In this document: in pieces, positions 14,154 to 60,914 of the stretch | Layout: each line of letters begins with the position of its first letter | Position numbering within the stretch: the stretch's first letter is position 1 | NCBI GenBank assembly: GCA_033580375.1 | Contig: GCA_033580375.1_4527.1 | Length of the DNA: 64,000 bases | Direction: 5' to 3' (one strand) | Source: a phage | Notes under the pieces: model-generated | What the model was told of the DNA's origin: nothing | Seen by the model: only the letters and a program-made list of their open reading frames with translations | Database searches by the model: none | Program-made: the position numbers and the translations under genes

Positions 14154-14786
14154 TCACAGTACGTTAGTTACAAGGGTAATGATTTCTTTGGACACATTAG
14201 GGAAGTCAATGTAAGTATATTTACCACCGATCTTAATCTTAACATCATTTTCAAGAGAAGTAAACAGCTTTGATTCAGTTTCTGACATGTTGTATGCAAA
14301 GATTCTAAGAGCGCCGTCTCGTCGAATTTCAATTTGGCGAATGCCTAGAACTCGTTTTGCAAATCGAACTTCTAAGTTACTACGGTTTTCACCAATTTCT
14401 TTAACTTCAACTTTATCTTTAATATTTTCAAAAACAAAGTTTGCTAATTCATGCATTTCAGGAGTAACTCCACGTGCTTTTCTGGTGTTACGTTTCTGAA
14501 GAAGTTCTGGAGCATTTTCTTGAGCAAATAGGTCTGCAGCTTTTTGGATAATATCCATTGCTTCGCCGGTTGCCACAAGTCCATCACCAGATTTTTCGAC
14601 TAAACCTTTCTTAATCAATACACCAATGTTAGAGTTAACAACTGATGCATTGTATTCTGCTTCCAGAGCTTCACGGACATTGGCAGCAGTGGTGAAGTTG
14701 TTCTTAATGATATAAACCATTATTGCAGCAGTTTTTTCATTCAGAGCGTTTTCAGAAGCTTTGATGATGTAAGTAACTTTAGACAT
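14154..14786 (-). CDS. motA: Middle-transcription activator MotA
   Basis: 210 aa (T4 MotA 211 aa); position between asiA region and gene 52; preceded by early promoter. Confidence 0.8.
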   Translation of the reverse strand: MSKVTYIIKASENALNEKTAAIMVYIIKNNFTTAANVREALEAEYNASVVNSNIGVLIKKGLVEKSGDGLVATGEAMDIIQKAADLFAQENAPELLQKRNTRKARGVTPEMHELANFVFENIKDKVEVKEIGENRSNLEVRFAKRVLGIRQIEIRRDGALRIFAYNMSETESKLFTSLENDVKIKIGGKYTYIDFPNVSKEIITLVTNVL

Positions 14787-22552: not shown

Positions 22553-23653
22553 TTACGCTGTGAAGATTTTATCCCACATTGCAACAACTGCATCTCGGTT
22601 ATACTTCTTCCATACTGCTTCAGCACGTTTAACTCGAGCTTCGTACGTGTCAGTGAATTCTAATACAGCTTTTGTGTAAAGCGCAACTACTTCTTTCTTA
22701 GGAGTAGAGGAATCAATTTCTACACGCACAGTATCTGGGTCATATTCGAATGTCGCATGCGGATAATCCTTAAAAACTAACTGAATTACAGGGACACCTT
22801 TAGAGATGGCTTCAATAGAACTATTCTCTACCGTACCCGTGTCAGGACACGTATTAATAAGTGCTTTAGCTGTTTTAAGACGTTCCATGATTTCACTGTG
22901 TGGAGCATCAATAATAACAGGATACTTAGCTGGTGGTGCCCATTTGCTTGGACAATAACCAATACCATTTTCGCCTAGTGCTTTAATCGCTTCAAGAGCA
23001 ACATCAGTACGACGCATCTTAGTGTCATAACGTTGAGCACTAATAATCAAATCAGTTGCTGGAAGAACTTCAGGTTTCTCATTCAAACAAATAACCGGAT
23101 AATCTTCGGCTTCAAACAACGGATTTGCTCGCCAATAATCATAATCAATTTTGTCAGTCAGACCCGAAGTCATATAACAATATTTACGTTCAAATTCACG
23201 GAAGGCTTTAGTAGGAGCATAACTCTTACCACCATTCTTATGAATTTGAATAGTCTGGTCCCAAATTTGAACAATGCCACGAGATACCGGTTCAAATGGT
23301 GTTGCCATAAAATTCTTATGAACTTTAGAGAGACCTGCGTCTTTAATTGCCTGAACGGTTAGTTTGGTCGGTTCCATTGTAACAACGAAATCGTACTCAT
23401 TAATGCCGGCTAGTTCAACAATCTTACGAGCCATAGTATAACTCATACCTAGACTGAATTTAGTCAGATGACCAACAGGATGGTGTGTAACTTTCCAATC
23501 ACCAAATGTGTCATTATCAAAACCAATATAATCAATATCAGCACCGATGGACACAAGATATTTCAACACATTTAAATGTACTGCTTCAAGACCACCTTGT
23601 ACACGCTCTGGGTTAAACGGGACTGCGCGAGATGGGATAAACATAACTTTCAT
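22553..23653 (-). CDS. Putative GT-B-fold glycosyltransferase (candidate DNA hmC glycosyl/arabinosyl-transferase)
   Basis: 366 aa at the rIIA-39 junction where T4 carries gene 60/mobA; C-terminal E..SIEAISKGVPVIQ resembles the GT1/GT4 E-x7-E donor-binding region; size typical of GT-B enzymes. Confidence 0.5.
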   Translation of the reverse strand: MKVMFIPSRAVPFNPERVQGGLEAVHLNVLKYLVSIGADIDYIGFDNDTFGDWKVTHHPVGHLTKFSLGMSYTMARKIVELAGINEYDFVVTMEPTKLTVQAIKDAGLSKVHKNFMATPFEPVSRGIVQIWDQTIQIHKNGGKSYAPTKAFREFERKYCYMTSGLTDKIDYDYWRANPLFEAEDYPVICLNEKPEVLPATDLIISAQRYDTKMRRTDVALEAIKALGENGIGYCPSKWAPPAKYPVIIDAPHSEIMERLKTAKALINTCPDTGTVENSSIEAISKGVPVIQLVFKDYPHATFEYDPDTVRVEIDSSTPKKEVVALYTKAVLEFTDTYEARVKRAEAVWKKYNRDAVVAMWDKIFTA

Positions 23654-25535: not shown

Positions 25536-25562
25536 ATTCTATCATCCGAAATCTAAAGCAAA
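25536..25562 (-). promoter_or_regulatory. Candidate MotA-dependent middle promoter for gene 39 (MotA box TTTGCTTTA, 12 nt, TAGAAT)
   Basis: Minus strand: TTTTTGCTTTAgatttcggatgaTAGAATacc about 23 nt upstream of gene 39 ATG. Confidence 0.4.
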
Positions 25563-41663: not shown

Positions 41664-42026
41664 TTAAAAGAATTTAAATTTTTTCTTGGTTCGTTCATTA
41701 AAAGCTTGTTGTACCTGCATTGTAACACATTTTTCAACATGCGGCGCAAGTTCTGCTTTTCTGTCCTGGTCAAGAACTGCAAAGTCCATTACGATTTTAC
41801 CATCAACCCAGTCTAGTTTTGTAATATAGACTATATGATGAGAACCGTCTTCAAGTGTAATCAGAATCTCTTGAATGACGTTTTCCATTGCTGAACGGAT
41901 AATTTTAAGAGATTCATTAAACACTCGTTCTTTGCGAATGTCTTCCCCTTCCGAAGAAGGGGATTCATCAACGATTTCTAGATTTAAATCATCGAGATTA
42001 TTCATCGAAATCTTCCATTTCGTCAA
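41664..42026 (-). CDS. hypothetical protein at the gene 40 position
   Basis: 120-aa track ORF between uvsX and 41; assignment positional only. Confidence 0.4.
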   Translation of the reverse strand: MTKWKISMNNLDDLNLEIVDESPSSEGEDIRKERVFNESLKIIRSAMENVIQEILITLEDGSHHIVYITKLDWVDGKIVMDFAVLDQDRKAELAPHVEKCVTMQVQQAFNERTKKKFKFF

Positions 42027-43170
42027 GGTCGTTTTCTATATCTGCTGCAGATGGAGCATCAGAAGTTTTAACCGGAACTTTAGTTGTTGCTTTGCAATTA
42101 ATAAGGTCGTTAACTGCGTCATCAACTTCTTTAATAGAAGAGATAGCGCCTAGTTTATATTTAGTTTCAATTGCATCTCGGAAAGGTTTGTGTTTAAACA
42201 ACGGTCCCCAGAATTCTACGCAATCAGTAGCTTTAGCACGCCATGATTTCTCTTCACGAATCATTTCACCTGTTTCTTCGTCAAGGAATTCACGAGCATA
42301 CCAACCGGCTTTAGGTTTAACCACAAAACCAATTTCAGTTGCCATTTCTAACAAGCCACTGAATGGGTCAATACCGCCATCAAAATTAACCGTGATCGGG
42401 AAAGTAGATTTCTCTTTAACAGTACGAGATTTTTCTGCTTTCAACGTGAAGTCATAACCGGTCAATTCTGTACCTTCTTTAACCTGACGTTTAGAGATAA
42501 AGAATACAGTGTTAGCAGAGTAAAGAATACCTGTACCACCACCCATAATCTCTTTAGGATATAGTCCACCGATTTCCATTGCTGTATGGTTAATTGCAAC
42601 ACATGGAATATCTTTAATAGTCAGATACGGGGTCACAATACGGAACAGAGATTTAAGTGCCTTAGCACGAGACATATCACCTACGACTTTCTCGTTCAAT
42701 GCATCTTCGGTTTCTTTCTTAGATGCAGTATTACCGATTGAATCGATAAAGATAATAACTTTATCACCGCGTTCAATAGCGTCAAGCTGATTAGTCATAT
42801 CAACTTTAAGTTGTTCGACGGACTGAATTGGTGTGTGAACTACACGGTCTAAATCAACACCCATTGAACGAAAATAAGATTCTGAAGCACCGAATTCTGA
42901 ATCATAGAACAAACAAATTGCATCTTTATATTTCTTCATATACGCTGCAACCATGGTCAGCCCAAACAATGTTTTAAAATGTTTAGAAGGTGCAGCAAAA
43001 ATAGTCAAGCCTGATTGCAATCCTGCATTCAGAGCACCACCTAGTGCAATATTCAACATCGGAATACGAGTAGGGACTTCATCGCGATTATTAAACAGCT
43101 TAGACTTAGTCAAGTCTGCAGTCATTTTAGAAGTAGAAGCTTTAATCAGACGAGATTTTAAATCAGACAT
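41998..43170 (-). CDS. uvsX: RecA-like recombinase UvsX
   Basis: 390 aa (T4 UvsX 391 aa); N-terminus MSDLKSRLIKASTSK.TA.L.KSK.FN..D...RIPMLNIALGG; RecA core. Confidence 0.9.
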   Translation of the reverse strand: MSDLKSRLIKASTSKMTADLTKSKLFNNRDEVPTRIPMLNIALGGALNAGLQSGLTIFAAPSKHFKTLFGLTMVAAYMKKYKDAICLFYDSEFGASESYFRSMGVDLDRVVHTPIQSVEQLKVDMTNQLDAIERGDKVIIFIDSIGNTASKKETEDALNEKVVGDMSRAKALKSLFRIVTPYLTIKDIPCVAINHTAMEIGGLYPKEIMGGGTGILYSANTVFFISKRQVKEGTELTGYDFTLKAEKSRTVKEKSTFPITVNFDGGIDPFSGLLEMATEIGFVVKPKAGWYAREFLDEETGEMIREEKSWRAKATDCVEFWGPLFKHKPFRDAIETKYKLGAISSIKEVDDAVNDLINCKATTKVPVKTSDAPSAADIENDLDEMEDFDE

Positions 43171-43269
43171 TGTATTTTTCCATAGGCATCATTATATTTT
43201 ACTCATGTTTAAAAGATAAGATGATTATATACTAATGATTATACAGCATTTAAAACTTTAAACAGGCTC

Positions 43270-43818
43270 TTAACGAGCCCATTTGATGATTTCTGTAATC
43301 AAATCATTACGTTCGCTTGCATTAAATCCTATAACTTTGTTAGCACCATCATGATTAAGTAATTGATACGTTTGGATTTTGTTATGAATTGCAAACTCTT
43401 CAAAATGTGAAATGACTGTATTAAAACTGAGTGAAGACAAAGTAATAAGATCGTCTTCAAAACTTTCAGTCATTTCGTTACGTGTTAAAATAATTGTGAA
43501 CACGTCATGGTTTTGGCAAAGACGAACATAATCCTGCTCATAAACATCAAGAACCGAGTCCGCATCTTGTCGAATACGTCCATAAACCCAGTTACTAATA
43601 TATCCACGGTCTAACAGATAAATCTTAGTAGGGTCTAAATAATTCAACATCGTTTCGAAACAACCAACTTCATTTCGAGACTTAACATCGAAACGTCCAT
43701 CAACTGTTCGTTTAGGGAAATCAATCTTTACATATCTTTCACTAATTTCCATTATGACATTAATGAAAGTTGTTTTGCCGGCATTATCTGGGCCATCTAC
43801 TAAAATAATTTTAGCCAT
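43270..43818 (-). CDS. P-loop kinase-like protein (thymidylate/dNMP-kinase fold); function unknown
   Basis: 182 aa; Walker A ILVDGPDNAGKTT near N-terminus, DRGY motif (LLDRGYISNWVYG) like the DRY/DRX motif of nucleoside monophosphate kinases. Occupies the slot of T4 beta-gt. Confidence 0.5.
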   Translation of the reverse strand: MAKIILVDGPDNAGKTTFINVIMEISERYVKIDFPKRTVDGRFDVKSRNEVGCFETMLNYLDPTKIYLLDRGYISNWVYGRIRQDADSVLDVYEQDYVRLCQNHDVFTIILTRNEMTESFEDDLITLSSLSFNTVISHFEEFAIHNKIQTYQLLNHDGANKVIGFNASERNDLITEIIKWAR

Positions 43819-43819
43819 T

Positions 43820-44716
43820 TTATTCCTCGATTACGACATCTTCGTATTTAGGTATATTATACGGCGAAGAAATTAAAGCATTAAAGTAGATGAACTCACC
43901 AAGACCTGGATGGAATACTTCTTCAGGATTTTCGAAATATTGAATCTTCGGACGTCCTTTAAGAATTTGATAGTACTCAGTTTTAGTTGGTTTAAAAATT
44001 CGAATCAGCGCTTCTTCAGGATACTTATTTCTGTCGAAGCTATTATTTGGATCGGTTATATAAAGTGGTTGTCCTAATTGAATTGCACATTCAACCACTT
44101 GTTCAAAATGATAACACGGATCACTAATTCGAAATGGATGAAAAATACCATCTACATGAATAGGAGCCAAATCACCTACAAGACGCTGCATGATGGAAGG
44201 ACGTATAACTTTCTGCGTTACGATAATCTTATTATCTGCGCCAGCGTTAACCAGCACTTCTTTTTGACGTTCATTCAACACAGTAGTTTGAAGTGAACGA
44301 TTAACCGACAACATGTCGGTTTTTAAGAATTCGTCAATATAAAAACGTGGTTTATTAGGGTCTGCAGTGATATTGAAATTGAATTCTACATCAAAAGCGC
44401 CGTCATATCCAGTGATATCTGTGATTAGAAAATCACAATCATAATAAGCAATTAATGAATCAACAACAAATTCATTTTCAGACCAGAAATATTTACGAGT
44501 GTTATACGCGTTATCTTTATACCATAATGGAACAAACTTAAATTCTGGGAAAAGACGTTCACATTCTTTAATATCAGATGCATTACGTGGATATGTAATC
44601 ACATCACCCGGATTAGCACGGTGCAAATGAAGTTGGAAGTTGCCATCCTTAAGGATAGCATACTGTCCAGTTTCATAAGACCGCATACTCAAGATTGGTA
44701 CGCGGAAAATAGCCAT
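43820..44716 (-). CDS. hypothetical protein (298 aa) in beta-gt position; no motif recognised
   Basis: Track ORF tightly packed (2-nt gap to next gene, 1-nt overlap with gene 42 homolog). Confidence 0.4.
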   Translation of the reverse strand: MAIFRVPILSMRSYETGQYAILKDGNFQLHLHRANPGDVITYPRNASDIKECERLFPEFKFVPLWYKDNAYNTRKYFWSENEFVVDSLIAYYDCDFLITDITGYDGAFDVEFNFNITADPNKPRFYIDEFLKTDMLSVNRSLQTTVLNERQKEVLVNAGADNKIIVTQKVIRPSIMQRLVGDLAPIHVDGIFHPFRISDPCYHFEQVVECAIQLGQPLYITDPNNSFDRNKYPEEALIRIFKPTKTEYYQILKGRPKIQYFENPEEVFHPGLGEFIYFNALISSPYNIPKYEDVVIEE

Positions 44717-45432
44717 TAGTCAAGGAATCCTTTAACATAATCAAAATCACGTTCAAACACATGGGCACTTACCATGGTATGAGTATAATCACCAACTTCT
44801 ACACCGCATTCGTTAGCGATATAATGAAGTAATTTTCCTTGGAGATAAAAATCCAACTGCATAACAACAGCACAGTTCTGAGAACGCATATGACAGTGGG
44901 TATAAAGCTTACCATCACGAATATAATAAGTCACTGAGTCAGTACATGGATATTCAAGTGTTTCATCTGAATCAAGCAAAGCCTGATCAGAACTTTCTAG
45001 AATTTGGAACACAACTCTTCGAGAGTTAGGTTTTTCTTTAAGTTCTTTTAGAAGAGCTGGTAATTGAGCCGCAATGCGAGGACCATAGAAAGTGTTGAAG
45101 TTTGCAGGCAAAGCATCTGATTTTGGTTTAGAAATAAATTTAGCGACATTAGGATATGCCTTAAACGCTTCTTCTGCATCAGTACCACCGGAAATCATAA
45201 ACTTCCAGAAGTCTTCGGCATATTCATAAGATATGCGATTAATACGTGGGTCGGTCATTTTGAATGATGATGGAGTGTCAACAACTACTGTCATAGACCC
45301 AATTTCATTACAACGTCCAATACGAGAATCAGTTACGAATTCTGGGTTTTCTAAAATTTCACGATTGACTGCTTTAAATGCGGTTTGAAAATCTGCGGCT
45401 TTGATATATTTCATTGTGTTATGTTTTCCCAT
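44716..45432 (-). CDS. 42: dCMP hydroxymethylase (thymidylate-synthase superfamily), gene 42 homolog
   Basis: 238 aa; catalytic region YPCTDSVTYYIRDGKL...HMRSQN...MQLDFY aligns by eye with T4 gp42 FMCTNTVQYLIRDKKI...NMRSND...FRNDY (Cys148 nucleophile, Asp179 equivalent retained). Confidence 0.7.
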   Translation of the reverse strand: MGKHNTMKYIKAADFQTAFKAVNREILENPEFVTDSRIGRCNEIGSMTVVVDTPSSFKMTDPRINRISYEYAEDFWKFMISGGTDAEEAFKAYPNVAKFISKPKSDALPANFNTFYGPRIAAQLPALLKELKEKPNSRRVVFQILESSDQALLDSDETLEYPCTDSVTYYIRDGKLYTHCHMRSQNCAVVMQLDFYLQGKLLHYIANECGVEVGDYTHTMVSAHVFERDFDYVKGFLD

Positions 45433-45557: not shown

Positions 45558-45713
45558 CTTAGTATTCTAATTGAACAGGTTCTTTAATCACTTTAGCCGC
45601 TTTGGTTTCAAACAGGCCCATAAGGGCCTTTTTAAGAATTTGTTCGTTAGTGTTCAGTTTCATAGTCAAAATCTCTTCATTAAGTTTATAATTAAAAGCT
45701 TTTCTAGAAATCA
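45558..45713 (-). CDS. small ORF (~51 aa) translationally coupled (ATGA) to the U32 gene; coordinates approximate
   Basis: Hand translation MISRKAFNYKLNEEILTMKLNTNEQILKKALMGLFETKAAKVIKEPVQLEY; start overlaps U32 stop. Confidence 0.25.
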
Positions 45714-46871
45714 TTCCGGGTACCTCAAAGCGTCATCAGAGTTAGTTATATCAATAATAGATATGGAGTTTTCTGCTAACCCGTTTTTAGATAATTGACG
45801 TTTGTAATATCTTTCACAATATGTACACGTTGACCCACAGATTTCATTAGCACAATCGAAATCCGGATGTCTGAACCACCTTTTTTCTAAAAAGCCATCT
45901 AACAAAGAGGTTTCAATATTTACTGTATGTGAAAACTCAGTCTCATTTTCAAGAGTGAAAATAGTCTCTAAAGGCTTCCACAGTTCTAACAAATTACCTT
46001 CAAACTTTTCAGAAGCGTATGCTTCAAGAACTTTCAAAATGTAGTCTGTGCTACCTGTACGTCCTGAAACTTTGAATTGAGTGATACCAATATCATTATA
46101 AAGTTTCAAATCTTGAGGACGAACAAAACGAGTTCTCAGCCAGTTAAATGGGTCTGTATCACGAGCTTTAATGCAGTGTTGCATTGGATATCCATTTAAG
46201 GATTTAGCATCATCAGCGGTAACATCAGTACTATGGAAAATATAGCAAGAGTCACGATAACTACAATGTGTTGTATACCCTTTACCAGCATTAGAACAGA
46301 ACTCATTTACAAGAACTTCAAATATTATATTGTTCTTATTGCAAAACTCTGCTGCACGCTTCAGGAAAGAAACTGAACGGTTCTTATGAATTCCACAGCA
46401 GACCTTTTTGATATTATATTGGTCATGCAAGTATTTGATTTGAGTTACGGCATCAACATGTAGAATTGTTGAAACTTCAATCTCAATATCTTTATTGACT
46501 TCACGAACAATTTCCATAACAACAGGGTTAGCGATAGTAATACGCCATACACCTATTGACCAAAGATACTGAACATAATCCTGAATAGCTTTCTTCTTCC
46601 ACTCAACTAGTTCTCTTTTTGAACCAGGATTTATCGTGTTGAGTGTATAGTTAAAGCAAATACCTAATTCGTTACAACGTTTAACATAGTCTTCTAACAT
46701 TTTTTTGTCAACGTCAGGAAGCCTAAAATCAGGTCTGGCTGCTACAAAAGCCATTTCTCTTGTAGAGCCATATACTTCGTTTATCAAGCTATTAGGATAA
46801 GTTTTATTGAGCTCTACGATTTTATCAAGAAGAGCTAAATCAAAATTCGTTCCGATTTTAAAAGTATTCAT
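45711..46871 (-). CDS. Peptidase-U32-family protein (RlhA/TrhP/UbiU-like putative oxygen-independent hydroxylase)
   Basis: 386 aa; N-terminal TIM-barrel signature NEVYGS...FVAARPDF...ICFNYTLNTI (cf. U32 DAVY.G...NAR.F...YVTLNTL), central ITIANPVVMEIVRE...EIEVS and Cys cluster EFCSNAGKGYTTHCS, plus C-terminal CANEICGSTCTYC. Confidence 0.6.
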   Translation of the reverse strand: MNTFKIGTNFDLALLDKIVELNKTYPNSLINEVYGSTREMAFVAARPDFRLPDVDKKMLEDYVKRCNELGICFNYTLNTINPGSKRELVEWKKKAIQDYVQYLWSIGVWRITIANPVVMEIVREVNKDIEIEVSTILHVDAVTQIKYLHDQYNIKKVCCGIHKNRSVSFLKRAAEFCNKNNIIFEVLVNEFCSNAGKGYTTHCSYRDSCYIFHSTDVTADDAKSLNGYPMQHCIKARDTDPFNWLRTRFVRPQDLKLYNDIGITQFKVSGRTGSTDYILKVLEAYASEKFEGNLLELWKPLETIFTLENETEFSHTVNIETSLLDGFLEKRWFRHPDFDCANEICGSTCTYCERYYKRQLSKNGLAENSISIIDITNSDDALRYPE

Positions 46872-46929
46872 TTTTTTGCATCTCGCGTTAATTGATGCGA
46901 TGGGTTTTTTGCAGGTCTTACTTAAATTA

Positions 46930-47331
46930 TTATAGATTCGGTTTATACGATTTAAATGTTTCGAATTCGCCTTTATTCATAAGAGCTTTGAATTCGTCAG
47001 GACGCATAGCTTTGTCGTCGATAATCCAATCATATACTGGTTTATGTGTTAGCAAATTATGGTACTTCAAACCAATGTTTTCCAAGTTCTGAATCAGACT
47101 TGGGAGAATGTCAATTGCTATACGACCAGGACCTACTGACTTCATACCACGAGCAGTGTAAAGCGTTATGGTATGCCCTGCATCATACAGGGCATTAATG
47201 GCGGTCACCATTTCGACGTCTGGTTTGAAGTTCGCGTAATCACGATTGTTATTCCATTCCGTGATGCAATCATCGACATCAAAACAAAGATTAAGCATGT
47301 TTTCTACACGGCGCATTAGATTCGTTCCCAT
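46930..47331 (-). CDS. HAD-superfamily phosphatase (KdsC-like sugar-phosphate phosphatase)
   Basis: 133 aa; HAD motif I FDVDDCIT, motif II LYTAR, motif IV YDWIIDD. Confidence 0.6.
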   Translation of the reverse strand: MGTNLMRRVENMLNLCFDVDDCITEWNNNRDYANFKPDVEMVTAINALYDAGHTITLYTARGMKSVGPGRIAIDILPSLIQNLENIGLKYHNLLTHKPVYDWIIDDKAMRPDEFKALMNKGEFETFKSYKPNL

Positions 47332-49001
47332 TGATGAGTGATATCGCCACCGATTGGACGATAGGAAACACCAGTTTCTTTATCAGTTAGTACCCATTTA
47401 CCAGGATTTTTTGTAATCAGAGTAGCCGTTACAGGTTCTGCTACGTCATAACTAATAGAGCCGTCTTGAAGTACACGACCCATGTTACGTAATTGCTTAG
47501 TCAGAAGTTCCATACCTTTATAATATGCGGCTACCGCTTTAAGTGGATTATTCTTGAAATAACCACCTAATGCAATCCAGATAATCGCCACTGCCAAATG
47601 ATGATACTCGTTAAACGAACTCATCTTTCCATATTTGTAAACTAATGGATTGATGTTAATAGTCACATTACAAGTTGTTTCGTCAATAGTAAACTGTCCC
47701 CAGGTCGGATTAGCATTGAATTCATCATAACCTGAAACAGCATAAAGCACTTTAGCTTCATCGTACAATTTTGGCCCGTAAATCTTGGTTTCACCAAAAT
47801 ATCCACGAGGGTCGATAAACTTGACTTCGCCGTTATCAGTAATCATAGTATTACTGAAGTTCGGGTCACCGTGAATAACAGAGTACTGTCCCTGAGAACG
47901 GTTATGATAACGAATAAGGTGTTCTAAAGCTTGTTTCAACATTGGCTTCAGACGTCCAATCTTAGTGTAGTTCACATGTGTGATTTTACCAAATGAATCA
48001 ATCAATGGTTGAATGCTTTCACAACGATCAATAACTTTCGTATAGAATTCTTTAGTGAAATCACGACGAACAGTTTCAGGACTTACAAAATAAATGTCTG
48101 TGCTGAATTTCAGTGCATCTAAAATTGCATCAACAATTTGTGGACGAGCAAGACTTGATTTGGATTTAATATATTCAAATGCTGGCTTACCTTTAATGCG
48201 TTCCATTTCAAAGTTATTTTCATTAACAGAAACTAACTGAGGAACTGAATCTGATTTTACTTTCAAATACCATGAAATCTCATCTTTTTGAAGAGCTCGT
48301 CCCTGTTCTGTTAATGCGAATTTAGTTACAGTTTCTTCACCAATTTCAACTGCATTAAAACTACGATTAAGTTCACGAACTTCATGAGCCTTTTCAAGTT
48401 TAGGCATATCACCTAAATCAATTAGATTCATAAGCTCTGATTTATTGAATGCACTGCCGTAAAGGAATTCTACAAAATCACGTCCTTTACAGTATTCGTG
48501 AATTTCCTCGTCAGTAGAACCCATGTAGAATTCCCAGTCTTTGAACTGATAAATTCCTACAACATTACCGCCTGTTGAACCTACGTTAGTGATATTTTCA
48601 CCATCGAAATTATATCGACATTCATCACCCTTAACATAGATTGCGTTAACATTCCAAGACCATGAACCAAAATCTGGAATAATATCACACCAGTTAACAA
48701 CTACGTTATGGCCGTCTAAATCTTTATGTAATTTAGCAAGAGCATAAGCAGAACCATACGCTTCATCAACTGTACGAATAGTCACATTGAACCCTTCTTG
48801 CTCACAATAAGCTCGAACAGTTTCAGCAAATTTTGAATGAACTACTACAATAATTTCATCTGCACCAAGGTCAGAATAAATTGTATACAAATTGCTCAGA
48901 ATAGTGTCTTGTTTATAGTTCACAAGAACTTTTGGAATATGGTGAGTAATTGGATATAAACGAGTTGCCAGTCCAGCACCAAGAATAACAGCTTTTTTCA
49001 T
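47316..49001 (-). CDS. Bifunctional sugar-1-phosphate nucleotidyltransferase (N-terminal) / sugar kinase (C-terminal, APH/ChoK-like)
   Basis: 561 aa; N-terminus KAVILGAGLATRLYPITHHIPKVLV matches the RmlA/GalU G-x-G-T-R-L signature; C-terminal HGDPNFSNTMITDNGEVKFIDPRGYFG resembles the catalytic loop of aminoglycoside/choline/anomeric-sugar kinases. Confidence 0.7.
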   Translation of the reverse strand: MKKAVILGAGLATRLYPITHHIPKVLVNYKQDTILSNLYTIYSDLGADEIIVVVHSKFAETVRAYCEQEGFNVTIRTVDEAYGSAYALAKLHKDLDGHNVVVNWCDIIPDFGSWSWNVNAIYVKGDECRYNFDGENITNVGSTGGNVVGIYQFKDWEFYMGSTDEEIHEYCKGRDFVEFLYGSAFNKSELMNLIDLGDMPKLEKAHEVRELNRSFNAVEIGEETVTKFALTEQGRALQKDEISWYLKVKSDSVPQLVSVNENNFEMERIKGKPAFEYIKSKSSLARPQIVDAILDALKFSTDIYFVSPETVRRDFTKEFYTKVIDRCESIQPLIDSFGKITHVNYTKIGRLKPMLKQALEHLIRYHNRSQGQYSVIHGDPNFSNTMITDNGEVKFIDPRGYFGETKIYGPKLYDEAKVLYAVSGYDEFNANPTWGQFTIDETTCNVTININPLVYKYGKMSSFNEYHHLAVAIIWIALGGYFKNNPLKAVAAYYKGMELLTKQLRNMGRVLQDGSISYDVAEPVTATLITKNPGKWVLTDKETGVSYRPIGGDITHQWERI

Positions 49002-49041
49002 GTTGAAGTCCTCATTGGTAAGTAGGAGTATTGTACACTAT

Positions 49042-49185
49042 TCTAGTTAAAGCATTCATACTTTGCTTGTAGTCCAATCATAATCCATCCAATTACAAGT
49101 GTTGGAATCATTACTGGAGCCGTTAAGCTCCAGTAGATAGTCATGACAAGCATCAATAGTAAAAGTCCTATTGTTATTGCTTTCA
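49042..49185 (-). CDS. small hydrophobic membrane peptide (~47 aa), ATGA-coupled to the SIS-domain gene; coordinates approximate
   Basis: Hand translation MKAITIGLLLLMLVMTIYWSLTAPVMIPTLVIGWIMIGLQAKYECFN. Confidence 0.3.
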
Positions 49186-49818
49186 TTGCTCGCCTCGTAA
49201 CATGGCACCTAGAGCACCGCCAGGGTGGAACTTAAGGAAATCATTAGAGGTAAATCCACGTTCAGACGAAAGGTTGATAGCAAACGTATCGATAAGCGCT
49301 AACAACAATGTAGTGGACATGGTCGGAGCTAAAGAGTTCTCGTCAACTTCTACCGCGATACCGGTACAGAACGTATAATCAAAAAGAGCTTCGTATTCTT
49401 GCGGAATGTCAGGGTTACAATGTAACAGAATCTGTTTAACCTGAGGACGAATCATACGAAGATGTTTAGCAACACCTATCATTTCTTCAGTCTTACCAGA
49501 ACGACTGATGTGAACTAATACATCATTAGGTGCAATAAATCCTGCGTCGCCATGAGAATAATGCCCAGTGTTCAAATACATGCTAGGAATACCGAGTGAA
49601 GCAAATGTCTCAGAAGCTTTAGTTGCAATATTAGCATTCTTACCAACACCTGTAATAATTACACGACTTTCATAATTACTCAGTCCAGGGCGTCGAAGAG
49701 TTTCAAGAATAGCATTATAACGAGCAGGGTTTTGACTAATTACTTTGGCCATAGCGGCCAAAGAAGAAGCTTGTTTTATGATTGCGTCAATAGCGATAGT
49801 AATAGGAGTAGTTTTCAT
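49183..49818 (-). CDS. SIS-domain sugar-phosphate isomerase (KpsF/GutQ/KdsD-like arabinose-5-phosphate isomerase, no CBS domains)
   Basis: 211 aa; SIS motifs VIITGVGKNANIATKASETFASLGIPS...HGD...DVLVHISRSGKTEEM and C-terminal HPGGALG. Confidence 0.7.
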   Translation of the reverse strand: MKTTPITIAIDAIIKQASSLAAMAKVISQNPARYNAILETLRRPGLSNYESRVIITGVGKNANIATKASETFASLGIPSMYLNTGHYSHGDAGFIAPNDVLVHISRSGKTEEMIGVAKHLRMIRPQVKQILLHCNPDIPQEYEALFDYTFCTGIAVEVDENSLAPTMSTTLLLALIDTFAINLSSERGFTSNDFLKFHPGGALGAMLRGEQ

Positions 49819-57960: not shown

Positions 57961-58195
57961 CCTCGATACATGCTTCAGCCATTTTAAGAATAGAGCCAGG
58001 AGTATCGTTGTCCATTATATTAAAGCTAAATTCAATAGCCCAGTCGGTACAGACATGAACGGCTTTAACTTCATTGCCTTCAACGCGTAATGGCTCAATC
58101 CAATACTTGATGGTGTTCTCGAATCCATCATCATCTTTAACGTCTATTTCAGCTTCAAGTCCGAGCCCAGCATTGTTAAATTCATCTAAAGTCAT
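57938..58195 (-). CDS. hypothetical protein (46.2 position)
   Basis: 85-aa track ORF. Confidence 0.4.
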   Translation of the reverse strand: MTLDEFNNAGLGLEAEIDVKDDDGFENTIKYWIEPLRVEGNEVKAVHVCTDWAIEFSFNIMDNDTPGSILKMAEACIEDAYNDED

Positions 58196-59211
58196 TGTGT
58201 TGCCTCAATATAAAGTTCGTTGGAATATTTGACCAGCGCTTCTCTGTCTTCGTCTGAGATATCTGGAATCGCGTCAATATATTCTTTAATGATATCTTGA
58301 AGTGATTTAATCTCGATTTCCTGGTCGTCATCAGATTCAACACTGTTATCAACTTTAGAAACCATACGAAGAGAGTGAACTACTTTTTCAAGTTCAGATT
58401 CAAACTTAGTCAACTCTGAATCAATTTCTGATACTATAACACGTACGGCTAGATTAGTATAATCAGAATAATTGATTTTGCCTTTAAACGGATAAGTGAT
58501 TCGTCGATGCCATGTTGTTTCATTAGGAATAAATTCCATACGTTCAACATCAGTGTCAAATACCCAGAATCCGCGCGGGTCGTTCTCGTCACCTGCAGTA
58601 AGGGTCCATGGTGTCCCAATATATTTGACGTTAGCAGCTTCAGAGATTGTGTGGAAGTGGCCAGACCAGACTTGTTTATAGGTCTTTAAGAAATCAGGTT
58701 CAAGCCCATGAGACTTCATTCCTTTATAGAAATAAAAGCCATTCAGTTCCCAGTGCCCAACACAATATGCCGCAGAAGAAGTCTTGATGTGCTCTAAGAT
58801 TTCACCTGTATTTTCTTCACACATCCACGGAACGATATCAATCAGACATCCGTCAAAATCTACAGTAGTTGGATGTTCGTAAATAGTAAAGTTTTCAAAT
58901 TGAGTTAACAATTCAGAAACAGTGTTAGGTGTTATTGTATTCTTAAACGCCATGTCATGGTTTCCTATCGTGACATGAACGTGAATGCCTGCTTTAGAAA
59001 TCATATCAACGATTTCACGATTGAATTCCATTGTACGATGTGTAATTGCTTTACGGACGTCAAACCAATCACCGTACTGAATCCAAGTTTTAATCCCGTG
59101 TTTCTTAGAGTATTCAATTGCTTGACGAATACCATCACGTTGAATATCTTGAACCCATGGGTCATCTTGTTTGACTCCGATATGGAAGTCGCCTAAGTGC
59201 AAAATTTTCAT
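58192..59211 (-). CDS. 47: Recombination nuclease subunit gp47 (Mre11/SbcD-like phosphoesterase)
   Basis: 339 aa (same as T4); MKILHLGDFHIG, calcineurin-like phosphoesterase motifs (GNHD, GHFH). Confidence 0.9.
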   Translation of the reverse strand: MKILHLGDFHIGVKQDDPWVQDIQRDGIRQAIEYSKKHGIKTWIQYGDWFDVRKAITHRTMEFNREIVDMISKAGIHVHVTIGNHDMAFKNTITPNTVSELLTQFENFTIYEHPTTVDFDGCLIDIVPWMCEENTGEILEHIKTSSAAYCVGHWELNGFYFYKGMKSHGLEPDFLKTYKQVWSGHFHTISEAANVKYIGTPWTLTAGDENDPRGFWVFDTDVERMEFIPNETTWHRRITYPFKGKINYSDYTNLAVRVIVSEIDSELTKFESELEKVVHSLRMVSKVDNSVESDDDQEIEIKSLQDIIKEYIDAIPDISDEDREALVKYSNELYIEATQ

Positions 59212-59234
59212 ATTATTTCCTCATTAGTTAATTC

Positions 59235-59260
59235 ATTCTATCATCCGTTTATAAAGCAAA
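59235..59260 (-). promoter_or_regulatory. Candidate MotA-dependent middle promoter for gene 47 (TTTGCTTTA, 11 nt, TAGAAT)
   Basis: Minus strand TTTGCTTTAtaaacggatgaTAGAATgaattaactaatGAGGaaataatATG; shares CGGATGATAGAAT with the gene 39 candidate. Confidence 0.4.
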
Positions 59261-59283
59261 AAAAAAAGAACTCCGAAGAGTTC
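59258..59283 (-). terminator. Intrinsic terminator (GAACUC-UUCG-GAGUUC + U10, minus strand)
   Basis: Perfect stem, UUCG loop, followed by ten U on minus strand. Confidence 0.55.
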
Positions 59284-59457
59284 CTATCCACATAGTACAC
59301 CGTACAGAGGCTCATTTGAACTTTTAAATCGAATGGGCTTGTGCGTAATAGTTCCTTCGGCTTTAGCTTTATCATAAGACTCTTTAAAACGTCTCATTCT
59401 TTCTGCTTTGCCTTTACGGATTTTATCGAAATTTTCAGAGGTCAGGTCGTTCGTCAT
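59284..59457 (-). CDS. small basic hypothetical protein (~57 aa); coordinates approximate
   Basis: Hand translation MTNDLTSENFDKIRKGKAERMRRFKESYDKAKAEGTITHKPIRFKSSNEPLYGVLCG; below track cutoff. Confidence 0.3.
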   Translation of the reverse strand: MTNDLTSENFDKIRKGKAERMRRFKESYDKAKAEGTITHKPIRFKSSNEPLYGVLCG

Positions 59458-59496
59458 GCATAAGCACCTCTCAGAAAATGCCTAAATCGATTTCTC

Positions 59497-59718
59497 TCAT
59501 CGTTTCCACCATTTCTTAACTTGAAATGAATCGACCCACACGAGTTGTTTTGGGTCTGCCTTTACAATAGGCGGACAAATTTCTGTAATAGAACCGTCGT
59601 GATATTCCTTTTCAGAAATTTTAACACAAAGAGGACCACCCAATTTAATGGTGAACCCTGCGTTCAGCTTCAGACGTTTAAATTTTGTTTGAACTAGCGC
59701 CATTAATGATGTCCTCAA
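59497..59718 (-). CDS. hypothetical protein
   Basis: 73-aa track ORF in the region where T4 carries alpha-gt. Confidence 0.35.
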   Translation of the reverse strand: MRTSLMALVQTKFKRLKLNAGFTIKLGGPLCVKISEKEYHDGSITEICPPIVKADPKQLVWVDSFQVKKWWKR

Positions 59719-60001
59719 TAGCCTGACGAGTAGTAATCCACTGGATTTTAATTAACTTGTCATTATATGGTTGTCGTAGAATATCCCGAGATTTCTTAAT
59801 AGCATATTCGTAAGCTTCGAAGTTGTTTTGAATTGCTGCTTCTTGAGCATGTGCATAAAGACGGTTTAGTTCAAAACGATTCTTTTTAAGAATCTTTTCA
59901 GATTTTTTACGTGCTTCAGCTTCATTTTTCTTTTGGATTTCTTGTAGCATTTTAGCCACTGCATCTTCTGCTTCTTTATTTTCAATAATCTCGGTAGTCA
60001 T
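59678..60001 (-). CDS. hypothetical protein
   Basis: 107-aa track ORF, Lys/Glu rich. Confidence 0.4.
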   Translation of the reverse strand: MTTEIIENKEAEDAVAKMLQEIQKKNEAEARKKSEKILKKNRFELNRLYAHAQEAAIQNNFEAYEYAIKKSRDILRQPYNDKLIKIQWITTRQAIEDIINGASSNKI

Positions 60002-60002
60002 A

Positions 60003-60216
60003 TTATCTCATTAAATTAAAATAAAAACGTCCGTCCTCTTCAATACAGAACTCGTACTCAACTGGAGTCCCATTTATCGAAAATGACACGTCATGTGGGT
60101 TCAAAGGGTCGATGTCAAAATTAATTTTAAATTCTCGACCCAACAGTTTTACCAAATAAGGGATTGCTTCGTCAAAAGGTTCTTCTAAGTAGTTAGAGAT
60201 ATCAATTGTCATCCTC
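60003..60216 (-). CDS. hypothetical protein (start trimmed to Met just after gene 55 stop)
   Basis: Track ORF 60003..60296 overlaps the gene 55 3' end in another frame; internal Met chosen. Confidence 0.35.
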
Positions 60217-60759
60217 ATATAAAAAATCCAAACTAGGTGAATCGCTAACAACTTCCTTCTTTTCAGCCCCAGGAGCTTTATAAGCGGATTCTTCATAATG
60301 CGTCATTTTATCGTAGATGTCTTGAATAAACGTTTCATCTACCAACGCTACCATATCATCGTCATGACTGTCGTAGACGTTATGAACGAAGTAACTATAT
60401 TTCTTTGCAACTTCCTTACGTTCTTTTTTGATACGTTGGACAAAAGCATTAAAACAAGCTCGAGTTATGTATGCATGTGGGTTATTGTACTTAGTTTCGT
60501 CGAAATTATGAAGTCCCTTAATAGAGGCTTCAATCCCATCTGCAATCATCTCCTGCTTCCAAGACTGGGTATATCCTGAAAAGTTGAAACGTTTGGACAG
60601 GCCTTCGGCGATAAGCATAATTGCTAAACCGATGGTATCATTCTGACGAATAATTTTGTTTGGGTCTTTATTATTTAAGAGCTCCTTTTTCCACTCGATT
60701 ATAGCGGCGAGAAGCTCTTTATTATTCACATAGTTATTTTTAGGTTTTTGTTCAGTCAT
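60202..60759 (-). CDS. 55: Late sigma factor gp55 (track ORF uses upstream TTG; ATG at 60759 gives the T4-like 185 aa)
   Basis: [27 protein letters not shown]..., region 2-like sigma motifs; length and sequence match T4 gp55. Confidence 0.85.
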
Positions 60760-60914
60760 AAGTACCTCTTGGCTCAATTCATAGGTCTATTATATCATAA
60801 TATTTAGAGACCTATCTTAAAGCACGAGATACTATCAAAGATACGTAACTTTCATAAAGTTGACGACTTAAAATTCACCAAACTTTTCTTCGGTTATAGC
60901 AATTCGAGATAGTT

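Follow-up and report, generated by a model that had tools for sequence, protein, structure and literature searches.

The DNA analysed here is a stretch of 64,000 nucleotides from a phage (hereafter, the window). Between genes 47 and 55 lies an interval of exactly 990 bp (59212-60201), and all local genes are encoded on the minus strand. The interval holds four small open reading frames, homologs of a-gt.2, a-gt.3, a-gt.4 and a-gt.5 of phage T4 (Table 1); the first 11 nt of the a-gt.5 homolog overlap the 3' end of gene 55, which carries the gp55 annotation in the records of both PhAPEC2 and RB69. A full-text literature search for functional work on a-gt.2 to a-gt.5 found none. Gene 47 and a-gt.2 are separated by just 72 bp of non-coding DNA (59212-59283).

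Table 1. Features of the 47-55 interval and of the predicted cytosine-modification genes in the window. Percentages are identities to the named homolog.
Feature	Coordinates	Strand	Basis
Predicted second DNA arabinosyltransferase, 366 aa, between rIIA and gene 39	22553-23653	-	99% RB69 ORF003c
RB69 ORF045c homolog	43270-43818		98%
Predicted first DNA arabinosyltransferase, GT-B fold, 298 aa, in the T4 b-gt slot	43820-44716	-	98% RB69 ORF046c+047c
Thymidylate-synthase (TS) homolog, predicted 5-hydroxy-dCMP synthase, in the T4 gene 42 position	44716-45432	-	100% RB69 gp48 (ORF048c); 24.8% T4 gp42; Pfam Thymidylat_synt
U32-like protein	45711-46871	-	99% RB69 ORF050c; Pfam U32
HAD-like phosphatase homolog	46930-47331	-	96% RB69 ORF051c
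Fused NTP-transferase/kinase	47316-49001	-	99% RB69 ORF052c+053c; Pfam NTP_transferase
SIS arabinose-5-phosphate isomerase	49183-49818	-	98% RB69 ORF055c; Pfam SIS
Gene 47, SbcD/Mre11-like recombination nuclease subunit, 339 aa (left boundary)	58192-59211	-	75.8% T4 gp47, full length; Pfam Metallophos
MotA-type middle-promoter-like element for gene 47	59235-59260	-	MotA box TTTGCTTTA (59260-59252), 11-nt spacer, -10 TAGAAT (59240-59235)
Intrinsic-terminator-like hairpin AGGAACTC-TTCG-GAGTTCTT and T-run	59256-59285 (stem-loop 59285-59266)	-	Terminator scan
a-gt.2 homolog, 57 aa	59284-59457	-	Pfam DUF5486 (E 6e-27); phrog_2140; 74% T4, 96% RB69 a-gt.2
a-gt.3 homolog, 68 aa (mechanical ORF 73 aa, from an upstream TTG)	59497-59703	-	phrog_1648 (E 5e-34); 71% T4, 98.5% RB69 a-gt.3
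a-gt.4 homolog, 107 aa	59678-60001	-	Pfam DUF2654 (E 2e-27); phrog_951; 58% T4, 98% RB69 a-gt.4
a-gt.5 homolog, 69 aa (mechanical ORF 97 aa)	60003-60212	-	Pfam DUF5491; phrog_1169; 47% T4, 100% RB69 a-gt.5
Gene 55, late sigma factor (right boundary)	60202-60759 (60777 with the mechanical TTG start)	-	90.7% T4 gp55

Read on the minus strand, the 72 bp region has the arrangement GGA-TAG-GAACTC-TTCG-GAGTTC-T10-GCTTTATAAACGGATGA-TAGAAT-...-GAGGAAATAAT-ATG. The terminator-like hairpin begins within the stop codon of a-gt.2, and the PhAPEC2 record annotates a terminator at the same site; its predicted RNA fold (-9.3 kcal/mol, z = -2.4) is a modest gain over shuffled sequence. The MotA box TTTGCTTTA directly abuts the hairpin, the two forming one fused cassette (59235-59285). 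MotA-dependent middle promoters of T4 are defined by two elements, a MotA box, (a/t)(a/t)(a/t)TGCTT(t/c)A, and, some 11-13 bp downstream of it, a sigma-70 -10 element, TAnnnT; the phage must also encode MotA. The segment 59260-59235(-) has both elements at this spacing, and motA is encoded in the window at 14154-14786 (Pfam MotA_activ, E 2e-39). Searching with the pattern TGCTTYA-N11-13-TANNNT gave a match at 59235-59258(-) and 15 matches in the whole window, compared to 1.7 expected; a sigma-70 promoter scan of the interval gave 8 against 6.7 expected, which is no excess over background. Of the promoter scans only the MotA-type pattern is informative, and from its sequence the element is predicted to function as a MotA-type middle promoter.

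The window belongs to a Mosigvirus, an RB69-like T-even coliphage. Across the region surrounding the interval (58100-60900) nucleotide identity to PhAPEC2, ESh15 and phiC120 is 98%, and PhAPEC2 is assigned to Mosigvirus in its own record; the nearest relative, PECP20, is 96% identical over the first 25 kb of the window and 97.4% over the last 25 kb, and gene order is colinear with that of RB69. RB69 and other members of the genus (PhAPEC2, PECP20, NP, Bas47) share the order 47, terminator/promoter, a-gt.2, a-gt.3, a-gt.4, a-gt.5, 55, and the small proteins are 96-100% identical. Altogether 147 independent phage records have this same arrangement of the 47-55 interval, lacking a-gt, and we can therefore rule out that it arose through faulty assembly or through deletion in the laboratory.

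In T4 the alpha-glucosyltransferase encoded by a-gt belongs to CAZy family GT72 and the beta-glucosyltransferase encoded by b-gt to GT63; T2 and T6 carry a beta-alpha-glucosyltransferase (ba-gt). The two canonical T4 loci, 47-55 and uvsX-42, both fall inside the window, which covers 64 kb of a genome of approximately 168 kb; the remainder was judged by way of PECP20 (96-97% identical), used as a proxy, together with the literature on RB69. Comparison of T4 a-gt and b-gt with the window (tblastn, phmmer) gave a best E of 0.2, which is at the level of chance. Neither a T4-type alpha-glucosyltransferase nor any similarity to T4 b-gt or to the ba-gt of RB14 and T2 was detected in the window: at E < 1e-3, T4 a-gt, T4 b-gt, RB14 ba-gt, 47.1 and mobB had no match either there or in the whole 168-kb genome of PECP20. 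A weak tblastn match of a-gt to PECP20_224 (E 0.04) is attributed to chance: 69 residues align, within a protein of 200 aa assigned to an unrelated PHROG. A clear homolog of a-gt is present in 657 other phage records. In RB69, likewise, a-gt, b-gt and ba-gt were undetected by BlastP, and the DNA carries arabinose, not glucose (Thomas et al. 2018, PMC6024577).

The corresponding interval of T4 measures 3152 bp and reads 47, 47.1, a-gt, mobB, a-gt.2, a-gt.3, a-gt.4, a-gt.5, 55. The flanking genes (76% identity for 47 and 91% for 55) and the four small open reading frames (47-74%) are common to both phages, in the same order and orientation; the difference is a block of approximately 2.3 kb comprising the homing endonuclease gene mobB, a-gt itself (400 aa, 1.2 kb) and 47.1, in place of which the window has the 72 bp described above between gene 47 and a-gt.2. 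An earlier note on this DNA had described an interval of about 1 kb with four small open reading frames (57-107 aa), a terminator and a middle-promoter-like element but no a-gt. That description is accurate in every element (the four proteins measure 57, 68, 107 and 69 aa), and the absence of a-gt is borne out both by the similarity searches and by the 72-bp junction. The same note placed a-gt of T4 between genes 47 and 55, correctly, but its picture of T4 omitted 47.1, mobB and the same four small open reading frames. Because T4 has a-gt.2 to a-gt.5 as well as a-gt, the four genes are no substitute for the glucosyltransferase. T4 likewise has a TTCG hairpin and MotA-promoter cassette after a-gt.2 and before gene 47; its interval contains two or three such cassettes, whereas that of the window contains one.

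How the window came to lack the block can be approached by comparison with more distant phages. T4, Klebsiella phage Roth79 and Erwinia phage Cronus all have the order 55, four small open reading frames, a-gt, 47, and in phylogenetic terms these three lie on either side of the window: in gp46, gp47 and gp55 the closest pair is that of the window with T4 (76-89%), while Roth79 and Cronus are more distant at 66-79%. Since a-gt occupies the same slot in all three, the likeliest history is that the module was lost in the Mosigvirus lineage rather than never gained, a reading that rests on a parsimony argument from four taxa, in a group of phages well known for mosaicism. Under the alternative, Mosigvirus never had a-gt: the window preserves an ancestral empty site, and the gene reached one and the same slot between cassettes in Tequatrovirus, the Klebsiella phages and Roskildevirus by separate insertions or by horizontal spread. 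Such mobility would suit a module that is complete in itself, promoter and terminator included, and that is accompanied in T4 by the homing endonuclease gene mobB, and Arbiol et al. (2010) reportedly described regulatory cassettes as shuffling points in T4-type genomes. We nonetheless consider this alternative unlikely. The identities of a-gt between T4 and Roth79 (66%) and T4 and Cronus (56%) roughly match those of neighboring core genes (66-79%), as fits vertical descent in place, and three independent insertions at one site are less parsimonious than a single loss.

If a-gt was lost, the fused cassette may hold a trace of the event. T4, Roth79 and Cronus each have, on either side of the gene, a cassette consisting of a GC-rich TTCG hairpin, a T-run, a TGCTTTA-like box and a -10 element. 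The cassette in the window resembles in its hairpin half the T4 cassette that follows a-gt.2 (GGATAGGAGCTTCGGCTCC), and in its promoter half the one that precedes 47.1 (GCTTTATACGGAG...TATAAT). We tentatively suggest, as a possibility about which we remain more doubtful than convinced, that 59235-59285 is a recombination scar, left when a crossover between near-identical flanking cassettes excised a-gt in the ancestor of Mosigvirus. Were this so, regulatory cassettes of this kind would serve T-even phages generally as places where DNA-modification genes are exchanged, and the retained genes a-gt.2 to a-gt.5 would be functionally independent of glucosylation.

The second T4 locus, uvsX - segA - b-gt - 42, has a counterpart in the window. 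Here too a glycosyltransferase gene lies immediately upstream of a TS-family gene and downstream of uvsX, with a nucleotide-kinase-like gene in the place of segA; the protein encoded at 43820-44716, however, is without sequence or profile similarity to b-gt. In profile comparison (hhalign) its family matched T4 a-gt and b-gt with a probability below 1%, and phmmer and profile hmmsearch of the family against PDB sequences gave nothing meaningful. AlphaFold2 run on the single sequence returned an unusable model (pLDDT 36.6), but with an alignment of 52 homologous sequences the model reached a pLDDT of 94.7 and a pTM of 0.89, and the protein is thus predicted with confidence to adopt a GT-B fold; T4 b-gt is absent from the top 60 matches of this model, and Foldseek agrees. 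A second candidate, between rIIA and gene 39, is nearly identical to PDB entries 9IQZ/9IR0, a crystal structure entitled 'phage HY126 glycosyltransferase' (E 2e-249). The window thus contains two GT-B arabinosyltransferase candidates, one adjacent to the synthase gene and one in the rIIA-gene 39 gap, and the paper on the Durham Collection names the same two candidate genes, in the sugar-gene cluster and in the gap between rIIA and the topoisomerase gene (PMC13390438). Both are relatives of a-gt at the level of fold only. Pfam finds no domain in either and PHROGs label both 'unknown function', so that family libraries alone would miss the pair. The earlier note had also reported b-gt as missing. 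There is indeed no detectable homolog in the window or in PECP20; yet, given that the gene at 43820-44716 sits between uvsX and the TS homolog, where b-gt sits in T4, the 'missing' b-gt is better described as replacement by a different GT-B enzyme.

The adjacent TS homolog bears on what these enzymes would act upon. T4 makes 5-hydroxymethyl-dCMP by way of gp42 and glucosylates the product, whereas the enzyme in the gene 42 position of the window is 25% identical to gp42 and, judged by sequence, is a predicted 5-hydroxy-dCMP synthase of the flavin-dependent, TS-homologous kind. RB69 gp48, with which it is identical, makes 5-hydroxy-dCMP and not 5-hydroxymethyl-dCMP, using molecular oxygen and flavin (Lee et al. 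2026, PMC13326640), an activity demonstrated in vivo by 18O2 labelling (PMC13326640). The modified base in this phage is thus probably 5-hydroxycytosine (5hoC) and not hydroxymethylcytosine (hmC), which would probably leave the a-gt and b-gt enzymes without a substrate. The genes for UDP-arabinose supply (isomerase, kinase/uridylyltransferase and phosphatase) are also present, at 96-99% identity to those of RB69, their functions being as proposed or shown for that phage (PMC13326640). In all, the window contains the whole RB69 arabinosylation set, that is, homologs of ORF003c, 045c-048c, 050c-053c and 055c, at 96-100% protein identity.

Taken together, these data lead us to conclude, with considerable confidence, that this Mosigvirus lacks the a-gt module and probably carries arabinosylated 5-hydroxycytosine in place of glucosylated hmC. 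The DNA of RB69 contains mono- and di-arabinosyl-5-hydroxycytosine, canonical cytidine being completely replaced (PMC13326640), and in Mosigvirus NP 5-ara-dC and 5-ara-ara-dC occur at a ratio of 1:4 (PMC13390438); by analogy, the same chemistry is to be expected in the phage studied here. The TS homolog (44716-45432) would convert dCMP to 5-hydroxy-dCMP, which would then be incorporated into DNA, and the GT-B enzymes encoded at 43820-44716 and 22553-23653 would arabinosylate the 5-hydroxycytosine once or twice, with UDP-arabinose supplied by the adjacent genes (45711-49818) as sugar donor. Neither a-gt nor b-gt would be needed by a phage that makes a different hypermodified cytosine, and, if the scar reading holds, excision of a-gt would have come after, or during, a switch of the cytosine modification from hydroxymethyl and glucose to hydroxy and arabinose. 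The earlier note held that hmC is not glucosylated in the manner of T4, and in this it is supported by the failure to find a-gt, b-gt or ba-gt and by the presence of the arabinosylation genes. Its premise that the base is hmC, implicit in the proposal to assay virion DNA for 'other hmC adducts', most likely does not stand: the TS homolog points to 5-hydroxycytosine, and assays on virion DNA should aim at 5hoC adducts instead.

Two other accounts of the missing genes were considered. The modified cytosine might be left unglycosylated, giving a genome of plain hmC or 5hoC that bears no sugar, as could be argued from the lack of a Pfam glycosyltransferase annotation for either candidate and from the fact that the first arabinosyltransferase is yet to be reconstituted in vitro. 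This is very improbable: both GT-B genes and the full sugar-nucleotide set are intact and 96-99% identical to those of RB69, a GT-B fold is predicted with confidence, and the DNA of RB69 and NP carries mono- and di-arabinosylated cytidines, which in RB69 replace cytidine fully. That a-gt and/or b-gt have moved outside the 64-kb window and still glucosylate hmC, as might be imagined where 64 kb of approximately 168 kb is in view, T-even genomes are mosaic and glycosyltransferase genes are differently placed among phages (Thomas et al., PMC6024577), deserves almost no credence, given that the search for homologs beyond the locus, as the earlier note had advised, left PECP20 with nothing but the single E 0.04 match, that BlastP found none in RB69 (PMC6024577), and that a TS homolog identical to the RB69 5-hydroxy-dCMP synthase means that the hmC substrate should not be made.

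That RB69-type phages lack a-gt, b-gt and ba-gt and rely on an arabinosylation pathway instead is already known, having been established for RB69 and its genus and published in 2018; that picture was refined in 2025-2026 by identification of the base as 5-hydroxycytosine. The practical value of the present analysis is one of annotation: it places the window in Mosigvirus and predicts DNA carrying mono- and di-arabinosyl-5-hydroxycytosine, from which follow predictions of sensitivity or resistance to restriction enzymes, to type IV systems (e.g., GmrSD/BrxU) and to CRISPR tools.

Differences from RB69 are minor. ORF046c/047c and ORF052c/053c, both split in the RB69 reference, are each a single open reading frame in the window; Lee et al. 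put the splits down to sequencing error (PMC13326640). RB69ORF072c is absent from the window. Within the cassette upstream of gene 47 the T-run is of ten residues here and six in RB69, and the -10 element reads TAGAAT here and TAAAAT in RB69.

Four small genes, a-gt.2 to a-gt.5, are conserved on the minus strand of the window (59284-60212; 47-74% identical to T4), although the phage lacks a-gt (the T4 alpha-glucosyltransferase gene) and is predicted to lack glucosylation. The four genes, despite their names, are unlikely to be accessories to glucosyl transfer; a literature search found no functional work on them. The homing-endonuclease genes that adjoin the glucosyltransferase genes in T4, segA beside b-gt (beta-glucosyltransferase) and mobB beside a-gt, are both missing from the corresponding slots (41998-45432 and 59212-59283, respectively): tblastn gave no match to mobB in the window, and segA was judged absent from its slot solely from the gene order there.

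Coordinates of promoter matches, a-gt regions and intact ORFs
Feature	Sequence	Position	Strand	Remark
MotA-type middle promoter, upstream of gene 39	window	25536-25560	-	pattern match
MotA-type middle promoter, upstream of gene 47	window	59235-59258	-	pattern match
a-gt with flanking cassettes	Klebsiella phage Roth79	3420-4775		
a-gt with flanking cassettes	Erwinia phage Cronus	3425-4748		
Predicted first arabinosyltransferase ORF	window	43820-44716	-	single, intact, 298 aa
Fused NTP-transferase/kinase ORF	window	47316-49001	-	single, intact, 561 aa

In Roth79 and Cronus, both distant Tevenvirinae, a nearly identical hairpin, AAAGGGC-TTCG-GCCCTTT, stands on either side of a-gt, and each copy leads into a MotA-like box and then a -10 element; this suggests that a-gt there is surrounded by a conserved, possibly recombinogenic, regulatory cassette. 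Across the whole window the MotA-box/-10 pattern occurs 15 times (1.7 expected), 11 of the 15 on the minus (early/middle) strand; the matches upstream of genes 39 and 47 share an identical downstream half, CGGATGATAGAAT.

The arabinosyltransferase and NTP-transferase/kinase ORFs are each divided in two in the RB69 reference genome (ORF046c/047c and ORF052c/053c), splits attributed to sequencing errors by Lee et al. 2026 (PMC13326640). Since both reading frames are intact in the window, they support that attribution independently.

The gap between genes 55 and 55.1 (60778-60914) lacks the 270-nt RB69ORF072c, as in PhAPEC2, whereas RB69 and PECP20 possess it; RB69ORF072c is a small presence/absence polymorphism inside Mosigvirus.
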